From a phage, in the sequence record PZ386969.1: a stretch of 64,000 nucleotides of DNA; one strand, written 5' to 3'. The number at the start of each line of letters is the position of its first letter. Position 1 is the first letter of the stretch. Both the position numbers and the translations under genes were made by a program. The notes under the pieces were generated by a model. It saw nothing but the letters and a program-made list of their open reading frames with translations, was not told the origin of the DNA and ran no database searches. Positions 4,799 to 59,212 of the stretch are shown here, one piece after another.

Positions 4799-6817
4799 TT
4801 AGAACACAACTTTCACAGTGCGGTTGAAAGAACCGCTCACCTTCACGAACACGTGGTTGCGTTGGGTGGTAGAGAAGCCCAGACCGGACAGCTGCTCAGT
4901 GCTTGGCTGTACTTTAATCTTACCACCTAACATTTCAAAAACCTTGCGGTGTTTATCAAGTTCCGGCTTCAGATATTCGTTATAGAAACCACGGGTGCCG
5001 ACAGGGTTAGCACAACCTTCCAGGATGAAGAACACGTGCTTGTTGCCAGTCTGCTCGCCGTCCCAATGGTTTGGTGAGTTCAGAACCAGCTGTACCTTCT
5101 GGAAGACGGAGGTCTTGATGCCCCAGATTTCCTGAGAGCGAGCGTCGTCTTTCAGGGTAGAACGGATGTCTACCACTTGTCCAGCGCGGACATCAATCAC
5201 AACAGCCAGAGTGCGATCTTTGTGCTTCAGGCCAGGATGCGAAAAACGCTTGGTCTGGCCTTTGTATTCAACTTCGATTTCGAAGCCCATATCACAGGTT
5301 TCACGCTGGCTGAAGTTAGTGACATAGAACTCGTACAGACCATCACGCAGCTTGCGTTCATCGCTGAAGAAGATGTTCTCCACCGGACGGCGGTTTGGAT
5401 CAATGCCGTCCATACCGTTCATGTCGATGTCTAGAGTTGCGCCAGTTGTCGAACGACGGTTGTGATAATACACGTGGTTGTGAAGAGGATCGTTCAGGCT
5501 CAGATCCAGGTCGTCGTTGTTATGCCAAGCCAGTGACACACGGAGGAAGCTGTCGACATTGCCGCCTGCGGTCTTCACGCGCTCTTTGATGGAGTCGGCC
5601 ACTTCGCCATTGTACGACCAGCTGAAGCCGTTGTTCCACTTGAACAGGTTAGGAGCGCCTGCGGTGGCCGGAGCGATCAGGGACATCAGGTTGCCAATGT
5701 GAGAGTTTTCGACCAGCACTTCCAGGGAATGCGCCTTTGGCAACAAGTTGGTCAGGAAGTCGTCGATCGTGATCTCTTCAACCTTGTCCAGGGACTTGGT
5801 CGGAGTCTTCACTTCAGACGCCAGCTGAGCAAACGGGTCCATCTTCTTCTGAGCTGCCAGATCGGCGAACAGAACGTTGTTGATGGTCAGATCGTCATAC
5901 ACGGCATAACGGCGACCCAGTGAATCAGTCAGACCCAGCGCTTCGACTTCTTTCTGCGCGTTTTCAATCATCGACTTCGTGACCAGCGCGGTTGGGCGCT
6001 TGTAGTTCGTCGGAGCGACTTTGGCTTCAAAGGACTTCACGGCGGTTTCCAGATCCCGGCCTTCATTGAGGTCTACCAGCAGAGAGCCAATCACGGTATT
6101 ACGAATGCCGTGAGGGGTATGACCGTTTGCACGGTAGCCAGTGCGCCAAGCCCACAGAGCGCGTTTCTCTTCTGCAGTTTGTTCGTACAGGGTCTTGTTC
6201 ACCACGAACGCCTGCACTGCCGCTTTGTGCTCTTCACCGCGATACAGAGAATTCTGGTCAATCAATTCCAGAACGATTTCAGCCGATTCCAGAGACAGTT
6301 CACGCAGGCCGCGCTCAAACACTTCAATCGCCTGGCGGATTTCACCCTTCTTAGAAGCGATGGTATCTGCCCGCAGAACATAGCTGCCCAGCAGGTCGGT
6401 GTGGAAGTGGTTGTAGGTGCGGACAATACCATCTTTCATTTCGTGATTCGACTCAACACCAACTTTCTTGGTGTCGTTGAAGTACACGTCGACGATTGCG
6501 TGCTGCTTAACGTATGCTGACAGCGCCGCAGCGACAACGTCGTATTCGTTACCCAACTGAATGTTATCCCAGATAGAGATCACGTTCAGGTCGGAGTCGA
6601 TGGTGACCACACCGCCGATGTTACGGATGAATTGTTTACAGCAGGTGCAGTCGTGCTCGGTACGCTCACGATAAAGCGGGTTAGTGCCAGCAGGGAAAGA
6701 AGACAGATACAGATCCCACAGAGCATCTTTATCGATGTTGGTCATGAACAGACCAGTTGCTGACATGGCCAGCACGTTATTGTTGACAGCTACTGCGAAG
6801 GGCTTAAAATCTGACAT
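4799..6817 (-). CDS. large hypothetical protein (672 aa) with N-terminal Cys cluster
   Basis: ATG start with AGGAAG RBS; HDCTCCKQF motif; no P-loop or other catalytic motif recognised. Confidence 0.6.
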   Translation of the reverse strand: MSDFKPFAVAVNNNVLAMSATGLFMTNIDKDALWDLYLSSFPAGTNPLYRERTEHDCTCCKQFIRNIGGVVTIDSDLNVISIWDNIQLGNEYDVVAAALSAYVKQHAIVDVYFNDTKKVGVESNHEMKDGIVRTYNHFHTDLLGSYVLRADTIASKKGEIRQAIEVFERGLRELSLESAEIVLELIDQNSLYRGEEHKAAVQAFVVNKTLYEQTAEEKRALWAWRTGYRANGHTPHGIRNTVIGSLLVDLNEGRDLETAVKSFEAKVAPTNYKRPTALVTKSMIENAQKEVEALGLTDSLGRRYAVYDDLTINNVLFADLAAQKKMDPFAQLASEVKTPTKSLDKVEEITIDDFLTNLLPKAHSLEVLVENSHIGNLMSLIAPATAGAPNLFKWNNGFSWSYNGEVADSIKERVKTAGGNVDSFLRVSLAWHNNDDLDLSLNDPLHNHVYYHNRRSTTGATLDIDMNGMDGIDPNRRPVENIFFSDERKLRDGLYEFYVTNFSQRETCDMGFEIEVEYKGQTKRFSHPGLKHKDRTLAVVIDVRAGQVVDIRSTLKDDARSQEIWGIKTSVFQKVQLVLNSPNHWDGEQTGNKHVFFILEGCANPVGTRGFYNEYLKPELDKHRKVFEMLGGKIKVQPSTEQLSGLGFSTTQRNHVFVKVSGSFNRTVKVVF

Positions 6818-14015: not shown

Positions 14016-14044
14016 AAATCTCCCAAGAATTATGGGGTATTTAG
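14016..14044 (-). promoter_or_regulatory. late promoter motif CTAAATACCCCAT with imperfect inverted partner TGGGAGATTT upstream of uvsW
   Basis: Minus strand reads CTAAATACCCCATAATTCTTGGGAGATTTTGT then ATG. Confidence 0.5.
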
Positions 14045-29674: not shown

Positions 29675-31885
29675 TCACCGTCTCAGCCATTCTTCCATAG
29701 ACATACCAGAGCGTTCATCATAAACCTGAATTCCACCGAACCCTGGGATGTTCTCCACAGAGTGAGGATCTGGCGTCGACATCATACCCCCAAATGGTAG
29801 CATCTGAGATTCTTCCATCGCAGACAACCGTCCTCTCATGTCGACTGAGATACTGGAGTTGGTGAGGTCACTAAACCATTCTTGTTTCACCGCCCATGCA
29901 TACAGCACAAGAGGCATTACACAGTCATCATGACAACCATCATCGGCTTCATACCTTGTTCCAGTCCATACGAATGTACTGAGTTCATCTATCGTGTCCT
30001 GGTCATCTATCACCAGCATTTCACGTTCAATCAGGGCTTTCAGGTTGGCACAGCCGTTTGTGCGCACCTTCTTGTTGGTATTGATACCAGGCTCAGGGCG
30101 GCGACCACCGATTCTCTTGCCTGTGCCCTTGGTATCTGTTGTAGTGAAGATGATCTCGGGATATTCAATTTCCTGGTATAGAATTGTGATCACCTGACCA
30201 CCCACGTCGTTGTTAGTCTCGACTAGCATCGGGCACGTTCCATACTTCTCGCCCATATCGGCGATTGTGTACGCGTACATCATTGGAGGTATCGTGTTAT
30301 TTCGATACTTGGCTGCGATCTTGTGAGGATAGTCTGTGATGTCGATAATGGTCAGCACAGAATAATCCCCTTCGACACCCTTGCCTGTATCTGCGATACC
30401 CATATAGATGCGCTTAGGATCGTAGTCGTGATAAATCTTGGTGAACTCGTTCGGCTCCTGATACAGCTTCGAGGTCATCTTGTCCAGACACTTGGCAGGT
30501 ATCAGTGATCCCACAGAACCACGGAACTTAATGCCAAATTCTTGATCGAAACGTGCATCACCCAGCTTCGCCCTTTGTTTGGATTCCCAGTCTGGATCTT
30601 TGGTGTACGTTGGAACACGATACCATGGGACCTCGGTGAGTTTGAAGTCGTTGTATTGTGGGTGTTCTGGGTTCGCCTTGGTGACGATGTCGTAGAACAA
30701 CCCGCGCTGACCTTTCGGCGTACTGGTCAGAATACAACGTGAAGTCTCTGCAGATGCAATCGCCGGGAATGTAGACTCCCAGAATTCAAAGTCGTTTTCA
30801 ATGAACGCCACTTCGTCCACATACAGGAGCGATACGGATCGACCACGGATGGAGTCGGAAGATGTCGCATAGGCGTAGATCTTTGATCCGTTTTCGAACT
30901 CGATCAGCGTGGAACCGAACTTCTCACAACCCTGTTGGAGGAAGAATGGCAAATCTTGATATGCTTTGCGAATACGATCTAGGATTTCAATCGCCTGCTT
31001 CTCTTTGTTCGCCAGTACTGCGATCTCTTTGTCGGAGTGGAACATCGCATACCAGAGCAGGAACGCTGCCACGACTGTCGTGTTGTGGCTGAGGAAGCCG
31101 TTGGTGTAGTAGCGCTGATCACTAGATTTCACCTGTAGGTCATACATGTGATGTGTCTCACCAGTCTGCCAAATCTCACGGATTTCTTCTGGACCTTCTG
31201 ACGTCATGATGTATGACCCAGAATTCAGGTCTTTGGCAAATATCTCCTTCATTTCCGGAGTGAAGAATATATGTTCGTCGGCCACGTTAATTCGCCGCCC
31301 AGTAACAGTCACAATAACGAATTCCGCATATTTCTTCGTCTTATGCGCTGCGATAACCGGAACCCAACCACTATCGGATTGCACAAAGTAACGTTTGCCG
31401 AAGCGGCTGTCCACGAACTTGTCATGGTTGCCAATGGTATTCAGCGGCACAGCGTGGTTGACGTCCTCGAAGCGGCTGTGAAGCTCCCCTATGGTCAGGA
31501 GCAACTGCTCTTGGCTGAGAGTATCGTAAACTGTGACAAGCGTGTCACCTTTTACACATTTCCCAGACTGACGAGCCTGGACGACCGCATTGAATCGATA
31601 GTCCTGGAAGTCATGGAACAACTGCTTCTGGTAATCGTGCATGTCAAAGAGGATGAAGCCTTTATCGATGGTCGTGATCTTGTAGTAGTTGGCGGCGAAG
31701 TAATGGGCGTCCATCGCGCACTCGACGAACTCCGATTCCTGCTCATCTGTTAGCATCAACTCCACACGAGGAGCGCGCACAGACGGCTTGCGCATGAACG
31801 TTTGGTCCATACGCAGTCTGACGTCTTCTGTCTTAAACCCCGTCTTGAGTGGGGCGTATTCTACATCACGCTTCTGATACGCCAT
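29675..31885 (-). CDS. terL: terminase large subunit (gp17-like) containing a mini-intein
   Basis: ARQSGK...TTVVAAFLLWYAMFHSDKEIAVLA matches T4 gp17 [30 protein letters not shown] once the insert is removed; C-terminal HDDCVMPLV; start at ATG with AAGGTG RBS. Confidence 0.9.
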   Translation of the reverse strand: MAYQKRDVEYAPLKTGFKTEDVRLRMDQTFMRKPSVRAPRVELMLTDEQESEFVECAMDAHYFAANYYKITTIDKGFILFDMHDYQKQLFHDFQDYRFNAVVQARQSGKCVKGDTLVTVYDTLSQEQLLLTIGELHSRFEDVNHAVPLNTIGNHDKFVDSRFGKRYFVQSDSGWVPVIAAHKTKKYAEFVIVTVTGRRINVADEHIFFTPEMKEIFAKDLNSGSYIMTSEGPEEIREIWQTGETHHMYDLQVKSSDQRYYTNGFLSHNTTVVAAFLLWYAMFHSDKEIAVLANKEKQAIEILDRIRKAYQDLPFFLQQGCEKFGSTLIEFENGSKIYAYATSSDSIRGRSVSLLYVDEVAFIENDFEFWESTFPAIASAETSRCILTSTPKGQRGLFYDIVTKANPEHPQYNDFKLTEVPWYRVPTYTKDPDWESKQRAKLGDARFDQEFGIKFRGSVGSLIPAKCLDKMTSKLYQEPNEFTKIYHDYDPKRIYMGIADTGKGVEGDYSVLTIIDITDYPHKIAAKYRNNTIPPMMYAYTIADMGEKYGTCPMLVETNNDVGGQVITILYQEIEYPEIIFTTTDTKGTGKRIGGRRPEPGINTNKKVRTNGCANLKALIEREMLVIDDQDTIDELSTFVWTGTRYEADDGCHDDCVMPLVLYAWAVKQEWFSDLTNSSISVDMRGRLSAMEESQMLPFGGMMSTPDPHSVENIPGFGGIQVYDERSGMSMEEWLRR
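31082..31558 (-). mobile_element. mini-intein (159 aa) in the TerL Walker A motif
   Basis: Insert begins CVKGDTLV right after SGK and ends SHN followed by Thr; no endonuclease domain. Confidence 0.8.
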
Positions 31886-32588
31886 TGTCTTCACCTTCTT
31901 CCTTCGGCTGCGGCTCGGCCTGAACGTCGATTACATCTTCTTCGGGATCAGGTCCTTTGGACGCAGCTTTCGCTGCAGCACGTTCTTCAGCACGTTTACG
32001 GGCGTCTTCGATGGTCTTCAGTAGATCACGGGAAGACCTGGCCTGTTTACCGACGTTGACCGTGGTTGTGCCATCAGGGGACGTGGTGACCTCGACGGTT
32101 GTTTCATCTCCAGGAGGTGGCTCTCTGTCGCCCGTGACTGCCTTGATAGTTTTCTGGTTCTCCATCAGGTCTTTGTTCAGACCGCGCATGAGTTCACCCA
32201 ACTCTTTAAAGACTGTGAAGGCACGGGGTGCTTCAGTCGTCGTCGCAAGTTTGGCTGCCTGTCCCATCATGAACATCGTGGCTTCCTGCATGGCATAAGT
32301 CGTGTCACGGATGCGTTTGTAGTCGGTGGTGGCATCAGTGTCTTCGAAGTCTGGAACCTTAGACTCCTTGGGCTTCAGCTCTTCTGGGTCCAATGAAGGA
32401 GGAAACACCACAGGCTCATACCCCGCAGACTCATACCCCGCAGGCTTTTCACCCAACCATTCACCTGTATCCGGATCGTAATCTTTTCCAGCCACAGGCG
32501 AGGTCTTCTCCATGACTTCTTGAGCGACCTCATCTCGCGCTTGGATAGCACTGAGGGTGGATAATAGGCGTTCTGACATAGCACTCAT
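31866..32588 (-). CDS. terS: terminase small subunit (gp16-like)
   Basis: Central region resembles T4 gp16; overlaps terL start by 20 nt; start moved from TTG to ATG with GGAG RBS. Confidence 0.6.
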   Translation of the reverse strand: MSAMSERLLSTLSAIQARDEVAQEVMEKTSPVAGKDYDPDTGEWLGEKPAGYESAGYEPVVFPPSLDPEELKPKESKVPDFEDTDATTDYKRIRDTTYAMQEATMFMMGQAAKLATTTEAPRAFTVFKELGELMRGLNKDLMENQKTIKAVTGDREPPPGDETTVEVTTSPDGTTTVNVGKQARSSRDLLKTIEDARKRAEERAAAKAASKGPDPEEDVIDVQAEPQPKEEGEDNGVSEA

Positions 32589-32590
32589 AA

Positions 32591-33286
32591 TCAATCTCCA
32601 GGATGATGTACACCGTCTTTGTCAACACGGAACCACTCTGGCAGTTCCGTCCACGGTGTTTTCAAATCATTAGACATTTCGATAATTATCTCTTTGATCC
32701 CGTTAGGATCCCCACCTCCACCGTTGTCCACCCAATAGTCATACCCGTAGATGAAGCCACTCAGCTGGAACATGAAGGAGCAGTCGACGTGTGGTGAATC
32801 AGAAGCATCCCCTTCCCAGTTATCGGACATCTGGTGGCTAACCAGTTGGATCTTGATCTTCTGGTCTTGCTGTAGTGTATCGTTGTCCTTGATACCACAG
32901 TCTAGAGAGGGAGTGAATACCGAATAAACCTGCTCTAGCACCTGTAACATCTCAACCAATTTCTTGGTTCGGATATTGTACTCAAAATCGATAATCAGGG
33001 GGATTCGCTGCTTCGCCCCTGCTGTTGGTGTCGATTGTCGATTGTGGTACGTCTTCGTCACCTGTTTGTTGATCTCAAACTGACCAAAAGAGAAAGTCGC
33101 AAATGGAAGCATGTTGGACGGCACGTTCCTGTTGAGGTCATTGCGTCTCCCGATGGCCATGTGTAATGGGACTTCCATAAGTCCACGCTCTGTGTTCACC
33201 TTCAGGTCAGACATAATGGTGGCAAACAGATTGATGTATTTCATCAATGAATCATGGTAGAAGTAATTTTCAAATGGTCTGGCCAT
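32591..33286 (-). CDS. tail sheath stabiliser / tail completion protein (gp15 position)
   Basis: Synteny between gp14 and terS; weak resemblance to T4 gp15. Confidence 0.5.
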   Translation of the reverse strand: MARPFENYFYHDSLMKYINLFATIMSDLKVNTERGLMEVPLHMAIGRRNDLNRNVPSNMLPFATFSFGQFEINKQVTKTYHNRQSTPTAGAKQRIPLIIDFEYNIRTKKLVEMLQVLEQVYSVFTPSLDCGIKDNDTLQQDQKIKIQLVSHQMSDNWEGDASDSPHVDCSFMFQLSGFIYGYDYWVDNGGGGDPNGIKEIIIEMSNDLKTPWTELPEWFRVDKDGVHHPGD

Positions 33287-33288
33287 GA

Positions 33289-33939
33289 TTATTCTCCAAA
33301 GTCGATCTTCATCTTGTCTGTTGCAAGTCCCTTCTCAAGAACATCTGCTAAAGCATTGTCGGTCTGTAGAGAAGAATCCTTGTACACGTCCGGTTCGTTC
33401 TCTTCGTCCAAGATGGACAGACGTTTGTCGATATCGTCGATCTCCGGAACGCCCGTATCGAAGTTTTCGTTGCCGTACTGGAACAACGTGCACGGTAGAG
33501 AGAACGTATACCATTTGCCAAATTGCATGAAGTCTTCATCGTTGTTCGGGTTGTTGACCTTGAAGATCTTGTTCGCCAGTGGTAGATAGATCAGGTCACC
33601 TTCCTGAGGTTGTTGTTCAAACCCAACACCGTTGCCTATCACCTCAGCAAATCGGCGGCGCGAGATAGAGAACGTCACTTCGTCTTGCAATTGGATACCC
33701 CCAAACTTCTCCCACATCTGGGTGTTGAAGCCCTGGTAATCCTGCATGTATGCTTCGATGTCGAACGCCTGGTCGAATCTGTGGTTAGCATCGTTGGTGA
33801 TAGGAAATTTTTCAACGATGGAACGGGGTATATACTTGATGTCTATCCCGCGCAACTCAATCATTTCCTGTACCAAATCTTCAATCAGCTTCTGTGTGCC
33901 TTGGTGATTGGTGGCGTTGAAATATTTAGAAGTGGCCAT
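33289..33939 (-). CDS. neck protein (gp14 position)
   Basis: Synteny; late motif GACTAAATACC about 25 nt upstream. Confidence 0.5.
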   Translation of the reverse strand: MATSKYFNATNHQGTQKLIEDLVQEMIELRGIDIKYIPRSIVEKFPITNDANHRFDQAFDIEAYMQDYQGFNTQMWEKFGGIQLQDEVTFSISRRRFAEVIGNGVGFEQQPQEGDLIYLPLANKIFKVNNPNNDEDFMQFGKWYTFSLPCTLFQYGNENFDTGVPEIDDIDKRLSILDEENEPDVYKDSSLQTDNALADVLEKGLATDKMKIDFGE

Positions 33940-33960
33940 ATCGATACCCTCAATTTTGAA

Positions 33961-33971
33961 GGTATTTAGTC
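33961..33971 (-). promoter_or_regulatory. late promoter motif GACTAAATACC upstream of gp14-position gene
   Basis: Motif about 25 nt before ATG 33939. Confidence 0.45.
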
Positions 33972-33998
33972 GAAGTTTATTCTTTTGAGGAATAGCTC

Positions 33999-34211
33999 AT
34001 GCAAGTGGAAGACATCAAAGAAGTTCGCAGCGGTCGTCGCGTCCGAATCATCTGTGTAGACGCCAAGATTGGAGGTGGTGATTACGACATCGTCGGTCTG
34101 GTGAAAGAAGTAGATGGCACAGACTTCATTGAGTGGTGGAACTCCAAAGACAAGACAGAAGACGGTCTGCTGCGTGGTAGTGGCAACGGAAACCTGGATT
34201 TGAAAATCTAA
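33999..34211 (+). CDS. hypothetical protein (70 aa), plus strand inside the neck module
   Basis: ATG with GAGGAA RBS; bidirectional terminator hairpin downstream. Confidence 0.4.
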   Translation: MQVEDIKEVRSGRRVRIICVDAKIGGGDYDIVGLVKEVDGTDFIEWWNSKDKTEDGLLRGSGNGNLDLKI

Positions 34212-34217
34212 AAGAAG

Positions 34218-34240
34218 GGCGGGTAATCCCGCCTTTCCTT
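34218..34240. terminator. bidirectional terminator
   Basis: Stem GGCGGG/CCCGCC, loop TAAT, T-runs on both strands. Confidence 0.55.
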
Positions 34241-34997
34241 ATCCCATGTAGAAGTCGATAGGGTACTGCTGACCAGTACGCAATTCTTCCTCTAAACGCT
34301 CGATCTCCGCTTCAGCCTCACTGAACATACTATCGCCATCCAGCTCGATACCGCCAGGGAGACGGATGCCTCTTGCCTTCTTGAGCACTTCTGCCCAGCG
34401 GCGCTTGACCAACGCAGTTGCATATGCCTTCAGCCACATATCATTCCATGCTTCTTCATTACCCTCAACCTCTGGGTCGATGTTCTGGAAGCATTTGAAC
34501 GCCAACACCTCGTCCTTTATCAGGGCGAATTGTGGGTAGAGTTTGCGCTGGAATTTCTTGTAAACGAAGGTGCGCTTCACGTTCAGCACACTGGTTATGT
34601 CAGACAAACGCTGTTGCATTGAAACATAGTCGACCAAGCGGATGGAAACGAGGGCGGCCTTTGGTACCAACATGGCTTGGGCCATCTGCCATTGAGGGGT
34701 TGCCCAGTTACCGATCGATTCAATCGGAGGGCCAACGATGACTTCAACCACGTCGTCGATGTCTTTGGGGAATTCGATGTAACCGTTGGTGATAGTTTCT
34801 TCAGTCACCTGGTGAACAAAGAATGCGTCCTGACTGCCATCACGATGATACTCCCAAAACTTCTGTAGAGCATCGTCTACAGCATCCGAAACTTGCGTTG
34901 GGTCAAGGTTGATCTGAATTACAGGTGCCCCCAATTTCTTGAGAATGTAATTCATAAATCCTTTACGATCAACAATAGAATTAACGGCCATTGCCAT
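34239..34997 (-). CDS. gp13: neck protein (gp13-like)
   Basis: KKLGAPVIQINLDPTQVSDAVDDAL matches T4 gp13 [25 protein letters not shown]; C-terminal LPGGIELDG. Confidence 0.8.
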   Translation of the reverse strand: MAMAVNSIVDRKGFMNYILKKLGAPVIQINLDPTQVSDAVDDALQKFWEYHRDGSQDAFFVHQVTEETITNGYIEFPKDIDDVVEVIVGPPIESIGNWATPQWQMAQAMLVPKAALVSIRLVDYVSMQQRLSDITSVLNVKRTFVYKKFQRKLYPQFALIKDEVLAFKCFQNIDPEVEGNEEAWNDMWLKAYATALVKRRWAEVLKKARGIRLPGGIELDGDSMFSEAEAEIERLEEELRTGQQYPIDFYMG

Positions 34998-35343
34998 TCC
35001 CCTTGTTGCTCTGGATATCAGCGACGGTGATACGTAAAGTGCGAACGTCGTCAGATAGACTGTTGCTATTGAGTTTCAACTCAGCAACGTTCTGCTTAAC
35101 GTAGTTGACGTCTGTGTTTAACACAGCAATCTTCTCATTCATATCGTTCACCTTGGTGAGGATTAGGTCGACCTTGTTGGAGTCACGCTCAACCACATCA
35201 AGGCGATTCTCAAATTTACCCATCATCCAAACAACCGAGCCAACAGAGACTATCGTCGCCGTCAGCACCCCGGTGAGGATCGCTTTCACATCGATCACAG
35301 TGTCAGTTTGGGTTGCCATCTTGGCCTCCTGACGGGAGTTCAA
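34981..35343 (-). CDS. membrane-anchored coiled-coil protein
   Basis: Hydrophobic helix ILTGVLTATIVSVGSVVWMMG followed by heptad-like segment. Confidence 0.45.
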   Translation of the reverse strand: MNSRQEAKMATQTDTVIDVKAILTGVLTATIVSVGSVVWMMGKFENRLDVVERDSNKVDLILTKVNDMNEKIAVLNTDVNYVKQNVAELKLNSNSLSDDVRTLRITVADIQSNKGNGNGR

Positions 35344-35551
35344 TCCCGAGGTGTTCTGCCATGAGTTGTACCATCGCTGTCAGTTGATCTATTTGCGCTG
35401 CCTGCGCTGCAATAGTTCTGTCCTTTTCTTCCTGATTTCGACGAGCGTTCAATGCTGCCAAACCGGCAGCATTGTCTGTGCAGATGATAGCCCCAGGGCA
35501 AGAGCTACTTCTCATCATCGATGCATGCCCTTGTACTTTTACACCACGCAT
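35303..35551 (-). CDS. hypothetical protein (82 aa)
   Basis: ORF in track with ATG; overlaps downstream gene by 41 nt. Confidence 0.35.
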   Translation of the reverse strand: MRGVKVQGHASMMRSSSCPGAIICTDNAAGLAALNARRNQEEKDRTIAAQAAQIDQLTAMVQLMAEHLGIELPSGGQDGNPN

Positions 35552-58713: not shown

Positions 58714-58747
58714 CTAAATACCCCATACAAACCAGTGTGGGGTATTT
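58714..58747 (+). promoter_or_regulatory. late promoter CTAAATACCCCAT as 5' arm of hairpin; 3' arm TGGGGTATTT abuts ATG 58748
   Basis: Inverted repeat AAATACCCCA / TGGGGTATTT with 11-nt loop. Confidence 0.55.
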
Positions 58748-59212
58748 ATGAAAACCTTTCTTGAATATCTTAAAGAGGCGTCTGAGGCTGAACCCAAGTT
58801 CGATAACATGCGCCTCTTTCACGGCTCCAACGTAGAATTCGATGTCTTCGACTTTGAGCGCTTCGGTCAGACCGACTGTGGTACGATGGGACCTGGGTTC
58901 TATCTGACAGGCAACGAAGAAGAGGCACAGCGCTATGCAGAGAATGCCGTCCGCTACCGCCAGAGTGGTGAACCCCATGTTCTGGTGTTTAACGTCAGTG
59001 TTAAGAAGCCCCTCGAACTTGACTCTAACAATGTCTCGGCCTGGGAAGACGCTATGCGTGAACTTGGTATCGAACCGGGTAAGATCCATGAGAACGCCGC
59101 CGAGCTAATTGCTCAGGGCTATGACTCCACCATCGTGCTGGACCGCTTTGGGTTGCCTATGGTACGTGAGATCGTCCTGTACAAACCAGGCCTGGCAGTG
59201 CGGGAAGCCTAA
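58748..59212 (+). CDS. PARP-like (H-Y-E class) ADP-ribosyltransferase domain protein (154 aa)
   Basis: LFHGSNVEF ... GPGFYLTGNEEEAQRYA ... REIVLY parallels the PARP catalytic signature LWHGS ... GKGIYFADMVSKSANY ... NEYIVY; late-promoter hairpin immediately upstream. Confidence 0.5.
   Translation: MKTFLEYLKEASEAEPKFDNMRLFHGSNVEFDVFDFERFGQTDCGTMGPGFYLTGNEEEAQRYAENAVRYRQSGEPHVLVFNVSVKKPLELDSNNVSAWEDAMRELGIEPGKIHENAAELIAQGYDSTIVLDRFGLPMVREIVLYKPGLAVREA

Follow-up and report, generated by a model that had tools for sequence, protein, structure and literature searches.

An open reading frame (ORF) of 70 codons lies on the plus strand between two minus-strand neck genes, gp14 and gp13, in the 64,000-nucleotide stretch of phage DNA analysed here (PZ386969.1; referred to as the window). 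The arrangement raises the question of whether this ORF is a genuine gene and, if so, how it came to lie there and what its product does. An earlier note on the same DNA had read it as a moron-type insertion in a conserved late operon, with a GAGGAA ribosome-binding site and a bidirectional terminator behind it.

E. coli phage vB_EcoM-ZQ1 shared 99% DNA identity with the region, and Shigella phage phiSboM-AG3 (Ag3) and other Agtrevirus phages shared ~90%; 271 phage records matched the region's DNA. By sequence, the window is from an Agtrevirus-like phage of the Ackermannviridae. Pfam and PDB matches identified both neighbours of the ORF and bore out its opposite-strand placement. The left neighbour (33289-33939, minus strand) matched Pfam PF11649 T4_neck-protein (7e-27) and T4-type gp14 chains in the PDB (5e-19). 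The right neighbour (34239-34997, minus strand) matched PDB gp13 chains (3e-20), and its orthologue in the divergent metagenomic contig L016 carries PF26809 Phage_T4_gp13. To the left of gp14 lie gp15 (32591-33286; Pfam T4-gp15_tss, 2e-58), gp16 (31866-32594) and the terminase large subunit gene gp17 (29675-31894), and beyond gp13 there are two small ORFs followed by a 1628-aa DUF4815 protein, all on the minus strand. A search of positions 33700-34500 against Rfam returned sub-threshold noise only, thus no known RNA was found in the region.

The terminase large subunit drew attention for a separate reason. It is 739 aa long in the window, compared with 581 aa in contigs L016 and L017. The additional ~155 residues start with CVKGDTL directly after QSGK and end at SHN|T, and the Pfam Intein_splicing model scored 29.5 bits, under its cut-off of 35.8. 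From its sequence, the extra stretch looks like a mini-intein in the ATPase P-loop region.

The small ORF occupies positions 33999-34211 on the plus strand in the ORF list, with an ATG start and 70 codons plus stop (MQVEDIKEVRSGRRVRIICVDAKIGGGDYDIVGLVKEVDGTDFIEWWNSKDKTEDGLLRGSGNGNLDLKI). An in-frame TAG at 33993-33995, two codons 5′ of the ATG, leaves no ambiguity about the start. The Shine-Dalgarno sequence GAGGAA, read at 33987-33992, ends six bases before the ATG, and TTGAGGAA is kept across Agtrevirus, Taipeivirus and Limestonevirus. Both the ORF and its ribosome-binding site were therefore present as the earlier note had described them.

The protein matched the profile of PHROG 4466, a family of unknown function, along its full length (5e-35, residues 1-70 of 70). 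Together with its position, this places it in the orthologue group of Ag3 orf201, to whose product (ACO94404.1) it is 100% identical. The published Ag3 tables list orf201 as a 213-nt plus-strand gene for a conserved hypothetical protein of 7795 Da and pI 4.8, with Vi01 CBW38033 as best hit (PMC3121705), and the Ag3 sequence record describes orf00201 as 'hypothetical phage protein'. Ag3 orf201, Vi01 CBW38033 and Sajous1 gp144 agree with the window gene in position, strand and 70-aa length, with no structural difference, and are the same gene. In the literature no published function was found for any of the three, which are annotated as hypothetical or conserved hypothetical. The small gene is thus already known, having been on record without a function since 2011 (Ag3), and is not a new gene.

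Conservation was then considered, as lack of it in relatives, together with absent transcription, was named in the earlier note as an outcome that would speak against the ORF. Homologues of the small protein were found by tblastn in 289 phage records, while gp14 was found at >=60% identity in 273. Record counts for the small ORF and gp14 were 164/164 for Salmonella, 29/29 for Escherichia, 20/20 for Dickeya and 44/45 for Klebsiella phages. The gp13-gp14 junction holds the small gene in about 270 enterobacterial Ackermannviridae, and the gene was found in every locus inspected (Agtrevirus, Limestonevirus, Kuttervirus, Taipeivirus, L016 and L017). In the two contigs the protein is 80 aa long and 40% identical, at the same junction and in the same orientation. 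Comparison with Ag3, SKML-39, EspM4VN, RC-2014, Gloob and CAU_YEP3 gave 6-28 synonymous and 0-4 non-synonymous differences (dN/dS 0-0.04), rising to a dN/dS of about 0.1-0.2 between genera (Taipeivirus, Kuttervirus). For the same genome pairs, gp13 and gp14 gave 0.03-0.08, and purifying selection on the small gene is as strong as that on its neighbours. Its GC content is 0.505, with neighbours at 0.45-0.53. These comparisons identify the small ORF as a real protein-coding core gene of enterobacterial Ackermannviridae.

The small gene and gp13 converge on a GC-rich hairpin at 34214-34237 (core GGCGGG/CCCGCC, 34218-34233), which lies three bases past the small-ORF stop and two bases past the gp13 stop. 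Its predicted folding energy was -18.7 kcal/mol on the plus strand (z -4.5) and -16.9 kcal/mol on the minus strand. The stem was intact in all 90 of the cells examined in 10 distinct relatives (100%), compared with 30-74% pairing in slid controls, and a G-C pair had been swapped for C-G in 4/10. The stem is followed by CTTCTTTT on the minus strand and by TTTCCTTAT, a weaker U-tract, on the plus strand. A stem-loop with a U-tract on each strand, the stem being kept by compensatory change, has the characteristics of an intrinsic terminator, and the bidirectional terminator proposed earlier is upheld as a prediction, with the terminator scan positive on the minus strand only. The Ag3 record carries two overlapping rho-independent terminators here, one per strand, named Torf201 and Torf202 in the published tables (PMC3121705), and this pair matches that of the window. 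Contigs L016 and L017 have a hairpin of different sequence at the same place after the small gene.

Two phages without the small gene at this junction, Aeromonas phage phiA8-29 (Tedavirus) and Vibrio phage D524, also have a terminator after gp13. It would follow that the terminator predates the gene, and this is the point in favour of a reading in which the ORF is a non-functional chance frame in a spacer that serves to terminate transcription or to insulate gp13 from gp14. The dN/dS of 0.02-0.2 refutes a chance ORF; the comparison with CAU_YEP3 showed 28 synonymous and 4 non-synonymous differences. A confident fold prediction and the large protein family recovered by profile search, both described below, also argue against it, and we give this reading practically no chance of being correct.

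How the gene came to the junction could be approached through the same two phages. In phiA8-29 and D524, gp13 and gp14 are adjacent on one strand, separated by a gap of 60-71 nt, which begins with a GC-rich hairpin and T-tract just after gp13. In D524 the gap also holds the late-promoter motif CTAAATAT just before gp14. The two genes are directly adjacent in T4 as well. With a terminator in this gap and, in D524 and the window, a late-promoter motif ahead of gp14, gp13 and gp14 were already in different late transcription units when the small gene was inserted. The sequences thus point to an ancient, now fixed insertion of the small gene, in inverted orientation, between the gp13 terminator and the gp14 late promoter. 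By the same comparison, the older gp13-gp14 order was not an operon that became interrupted; the insertion fell between two late transcription units.

These findings bear directly on the moron proposal. Morons of lambdoid phages are autonomous promoter-gene-terminator units between late genes. The small gene resembles them in being a small unit with its own translation signals and a terminator, placed between genes that are adjacent in distant relatives. It differs in being fixed, in having a composition that is not foreign, in lying on the opposite strand between two transcription units, and in the lack of a lysogen. Ackermannviridae are known as virulent phages, so a lysogen-benefit role would not apply. 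The part of the proposal that stood is that the gene is an autonomous opposite-strand insertion relative to the older order of phiA8-29 and D524. The remainder did not stand: the gene is not sporadic, as its per-host counts equal those of gp14, its GC content is typical of its flanks, and no operon was interrupted. Of its own signals, the terminator is real but ancestral and shared, and the promoter is a candidate at 33809-33836.

A recent, dispensable accessory gene that entered a late operon with signals of its own, and that confers an advantage specific to host or niche, would fit the autonomous unit with its own ribosome-binding site and terminator, and the adjacency of gp13 and gp14 in distant family members. 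Homologues in unrelated phages imply horizontal movement at some time. Presence at the same spot in essentially every enterobacterial Ackermannviridae record, however, goes against this at the very junction where presence or absence had been proposed as the check. The fixed distribution, strong purifying selection matching that on the neck genes, and neighbour-like GC argue against a recent moron, as does insertion between rather than inside transcription units. A recent moron is largely refuted by distribution, and we regard this explanation as very improbable.

Other arrangements around the gene were observed. In Vibrio Ackermannviridae, a weak homologue (E about 1e-3) is located elsewhere, in an opposite-strand two-gene island by the baseplate genes. 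In Vibrio phages K364 (L007 1953-2674) and 1.255.O (L008 1956-2686), an 88-94 aa weak homologue is paired with a 155-158 aa gene; the two make up an island on the opposite strand, flanked by baseplate genes and a RuvC-like gene, a similar architecture at a different junction. In contigs L016 (4974-4991) and L017 (about 4960-4990), a mini-ORF of 5-6 codons with its own Shine-Dalgarno sequence lies directly upstream of the small gene, at the position of the window's small-gene start; the intergenic region there is ~20 nt longer.

A second, younger insertion marks the same junction in some relatives. LIMEstone1 and PhaxI carry an extra plus-strand gene of 235-236 aa between gp14 and the small gene (L002 3702-4500 and L004 1228-1938, respectively), at a point equivalent to ~33925-33940 of the window, where it is absent. 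Its product has T5orf172/MUG113 (GIY-YIG superfamily) and CapR domains, and it resembles the free-standing GIY-YIG/T5orf172 homing-endonuclease-like genes of T4-type phages. Congeners of the two carriers, RC-2014 for LIMEstone1 and Sajous1 for PhaxI, also lack the gene, which is held by only about 28 records at >=90% identity. The list of homing endonucleases in the LIMEstone1 paper does not include it. Sequence comparison identifies it as a recent mobile, sporadic element. With the insertion came a recoded 5′ end for gp14 and a palindromic TTTAAATATATTTAG region, while the former gp14 start (ATGGCCACTTCAAAA, minus strand) and late promoter persist as a remnant immediately 5′ of the small gene. 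The insertion also shows that the small gene was at the junction before the T5orf172 gene.

A single mobile cassette of the small gene and the T5orf172 gene was considered and rejected, since the gp14 start and promoter remnant separates them. The idea also fails on identity: the nuclease gene is 94% identical in PhaxI and LIMEstone1, phages of different subfamilies, and the small gene is 56-66% identical across subfamilies. The 70-aa gene is thus outside the nuclease cassette.

Expression of the small gene was examined through the promoter motifs of the region. The motif CTAAATAC occurs 8 times in the window against 1.2 expected, and 12 of the 13 sites for CTAAATA[CT] lie roughly 15-50 nt before late-gene starts. 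From this enrichment and placement, the copy at 33962-33969 on the minus strand is the predicted late promoter of gp14, which would make gp14-gp17 a separate late transcription unit. Copies of CTAAATAC at 14044(-), 17243(-), 45253(-), 48666(-), 58714(+), 59209(+) and 33969(-) are usually followed by CCCC, and a matching GGGGTAT stands just before the start codon at these late genes. Given this match, the 5′ end of late mRNAs could pair with their own Shine-Dalgarno sequence; for gp14 the pairing would be weaker (CCUUCAA/UUGAGGG, -6 kcal/mol).

No such motif serves the small gene. Scanning and reading of the plus strand in the 59-nt intergenic region gave no convincing late (CTAAATA / TATAAATA) or sigma-70 promoter, and no CTAAATA-type motif was found upstream of the gene on that strand. 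A promoter scan of 33000-35500 on the plus strand yielded two promoter-like sites, and only one, at 33809-33836, is upstream of the small gene. This candidate sigma-70-type promoter, TTTTCA-N16-TATACT, lies antisense within gp14 codons 35-44, ~165 nt before the small-gene ATG. It resembles the Ag3 early promoter Porf009, TTttCA-N16-TATAAT (PMC3121705). The putative 155-nt 5′ leader would have no significant structure (z = +0.5), and the Shine-Dalgarno sequence would not be hidden.

Across nine genomes of Aglimvirinae, Cvivirinae and Taipeivirus, the hexamers of the candidate promoter were invariant and the spacer variable. Codons with a conserved degenerate amino acid were taken as informative. 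Of 149 such positions in gp14, 20 were codon-invariant, and these included all four under the hexamers, K35, Y36, E43 and K44 (P about 2.5e-4). The densest invariant cluster in the nine genomes was at codons 31-49 (33793-33849), with 6 of 10 informative codons invariant compared with 13% gene-wide. The site is not conserved in L016 or L017. The pattern of codon conservation suggests an embedded promoter read by the host polymerase, and hence early expression of the small gene, although it could instead serve gp14 mRNA or translation. A literature search, including a term look-up in the PhageExpressionAtlas paper, found no Ackermannviridae transcriptome or family-name matches.

Alternatively, the small gene may be expressed late, together with the neck proteins, by divergent transcription out of the gp14 late-promoter region, an explanation that departs from the one we prefer in timing only. 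In the LIMEstone1 record the junction is annotated with a putative late -10 on each strand, and the palindromic TTTAAATATATTTAG in the LIMEstone1/PhaxI insert could fire both ways. A palindromic late-promoter pair does occur elsewhere in the window, at 58714/58749. At the gp13-gp14 junction of the window, however, the plus strand reads GTATTTAG / ATCGATAC rather than CTAAATA, and the intergenic plus strand is without a usable -10 ahead of the Shine-Dalgarno sequence. Late expression is therefore rather unlikely. The pair at 58714-58749 is itself of note: its two late-promoter motifs form a palindrome (CTAAATACCCC...GGGGTATTTAT) facing in opposite directions, apparently a bidirectional late promoter.

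Its position beside gp13 and gp14 would also be explained if the product helped to assemble the neck or complete the head, or were a minor virion protein, and the gene were retained there through the product's action on those proteins. Linkage to gp13/gp14 is strict across Aglimvirinae, Cvivirinae, Taipeivirus and contigs at 40% protein identity, and such stable linkage over deep divergence could hint at a neck-related role. One database entry (P0041) names a homologue 'putative neck protein'. The published virion proteomes do not include it. LC-MS/MS of CsCl-purified Sajous1, in which the small gene is gp144, detected gp143 (33 spectra), gp145 (16) and gp146 (16), with gp144 not listed (PMC10892097, Table 6), and even traces of terminase were recorded (4 and 1 spectra; PMC10892097). 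The LIMEstone1 record flags ORF151, ORF154 and ORF157 as confirmed structural proteins, and ORF153, the small gene, is not flagged. As the Kuttervirus protein is predicted to give three tryptic peptides of 13, 11 and 16 residues, this absence is meaningful, though not conclusive since a 70-aa protein can be missed.

Further observations weigh against a neck role. The gene is on the opposite strand and lacks the late promoter motif, the Vibrio Ackermannviridae homologue is far from the neck genes, and closer homologues (53%) are found in non-structural regions of unrelated phages. No related chain was found in any solved neck structure or elsewhere in the PDB. A neck or virion function thus seems unlikely, and a non-virion protein remains the preferred reading.

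To examine what such a protein might do, its structure was modelled. The AlphaFold2 model (pLDDT 96.4) was a small beta-barrel of four main strands. Fold matches included PsaE, eL27, the Pif1 SH3 domain, HspQ, DUF1653, CdnL, PipX and the Mfd RID, and the strands and matches together indicate an SH3/Tudor-like barrel. Although the fold class of the model is clear, no homologue of known function emerges. Pfam gave no match to the small protein at E up to 10 and nothing useful for 19 distant relatives. PDB sequence searches returned noise only, whether the query was the single sequence or a broad family profile (fatty-acid-binding protein, E 0.3). Foldseek against the PDB gave nothing below E = 1, and a BFVD fold search returned only uncharacterised phage proteins.

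Some of the fold matches are domains that interact with RNA polymerase. Sequence identity to the CarD/CdnL N-terminal domain, the Mfd RID, the UvrD C-terminal Tudor domain and the NusG KOW domain was 5-10%. Foldseek probabilities for the RNA-polymerase-interacting Tudor/SH3-like domains were <0.3, and unrelated barrels (PsaE, eL27, PipX, HspQ and DUF1653) scored equally. No Pfam or PDB sequence-profile match placed the protein with the CarD_TRCF RNA-polymerase-interacting domain.

The wider family was recovered by sequence profile. A search of 1.84 billion representatives returned 187 proteins at E <= 1e-3. In many of them a unit of roughly 60 aa is repeated 2-3 times in tandem, its motif being K-P-V-Q-T-R-D-G-R-x-V-R-I-x-C-x-D ... 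V-G-L-V ... E ... W/Y-x-x-D-G ... D-L. Precomputed matches to PF26890 Phage_HP1_YO09, an uncharacterised family named for Haemophilus phage HP1, were present on two distant relatives, P0068 (profile 9e-8) and P0056 (2e-11), and P0068 in turn recovered the Ackermannviridae gene by tblastn (2e-5 to 1e-4). The link of the small protein to PF26890 is indirect, through these two proteins only. It shares the core G-x3-R-I-x-C-x-D-A-K ... L ... F/E-x-W with PF26890 and the 'KPVQTRDGRxxRIxCxD' repeat proteins, but consists of one short domain that ends in a distinctive tail, whereas many relatives have tandem units or extra domains.

Where context was visible, relatives in other phages were in early or replication regions. 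A 53% identical relative in Vibrio phage 1.031.O is among small genes, that of Yersinia phage GN1 is between DNA ligase and topoisomerase III, and that of L020 adjoins Rad52, PDDEXK and HTH genes. In Burkholderia phage JC1 the relative follows DnaC, and in the 40-kb Vibrio phage 69E27.1 (locus tag PODOV045v1) it is gene 7, at the left end.

Taken as a whole, the data are best explained by an ancestral gene of enterobacterial Ackermannviridae that forms its own transcription unit, probably driven by sigma-70, and encodes a non-virion SH3/Tudor-like binding protein; we put the probability of this reading at roughly 0.7. The gene entered, long ago, a gap that already existed, with the gp13 terminator on one side and the gp14 late promoter on the other, and has stayed fixed there. 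It would form a one-gene transcription unit that diverges from the gp14 late unit and converges with gp13, reusing the palindromic gp13 terminator in the opposite direction. Host RNA polymerase would probably transcribe it from the sigma-70-like promoter in the 5′ part of gp14, on a schedule different from that of the neck genes and probably earlier. The predicted product, a 7.8 kDa, mildly acidic, single-domain beta-barrel outside the virion, would most likely act as a small binding module in the cytoplasm, with a macromolecule of the host or the phage as its target in the course of infection.

A bolder version of this reading is conceivable, in which the 70-aa barrel is the most conserved single-domain member of a large PHROG 4466/PF26890-like family of uncharacterised phage proteins. 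It would act as an early Tudor-like binder of a host machine (e.g. the RNA polymerase beta lobe, as CarD/Mfd/UvrD domains do) or of a defence protein, while the sigma-70 antisense transcript over the gp14 start and late promoter helps to time the neck genes. We consider this extension speculative and distinctly unlikely.

As a finding, this is an ordinary conserved hypothetical gene, with homologues in Vi01 and hundreds of other genomes. It is nevertheless a core gene of phages in therapeutic use (Kuttervirus, Agtrevirus, Limestonevirus and Taipeivirus), with a confidently predicted fold. It is a cheap target for pull-down or knockout, and a function found in this way would carry over as annotation to its family, which has at least 187 sequence clusters. 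The gp13-gp14 junction shows how a gene can settle in the gap between a terminator and a promoter and reuse a palindromic terminator. As the same junction is a landing site for the T5orf172 nuclease gene, it matters for phage engineering and for the reading of synteny breaks in these phages.
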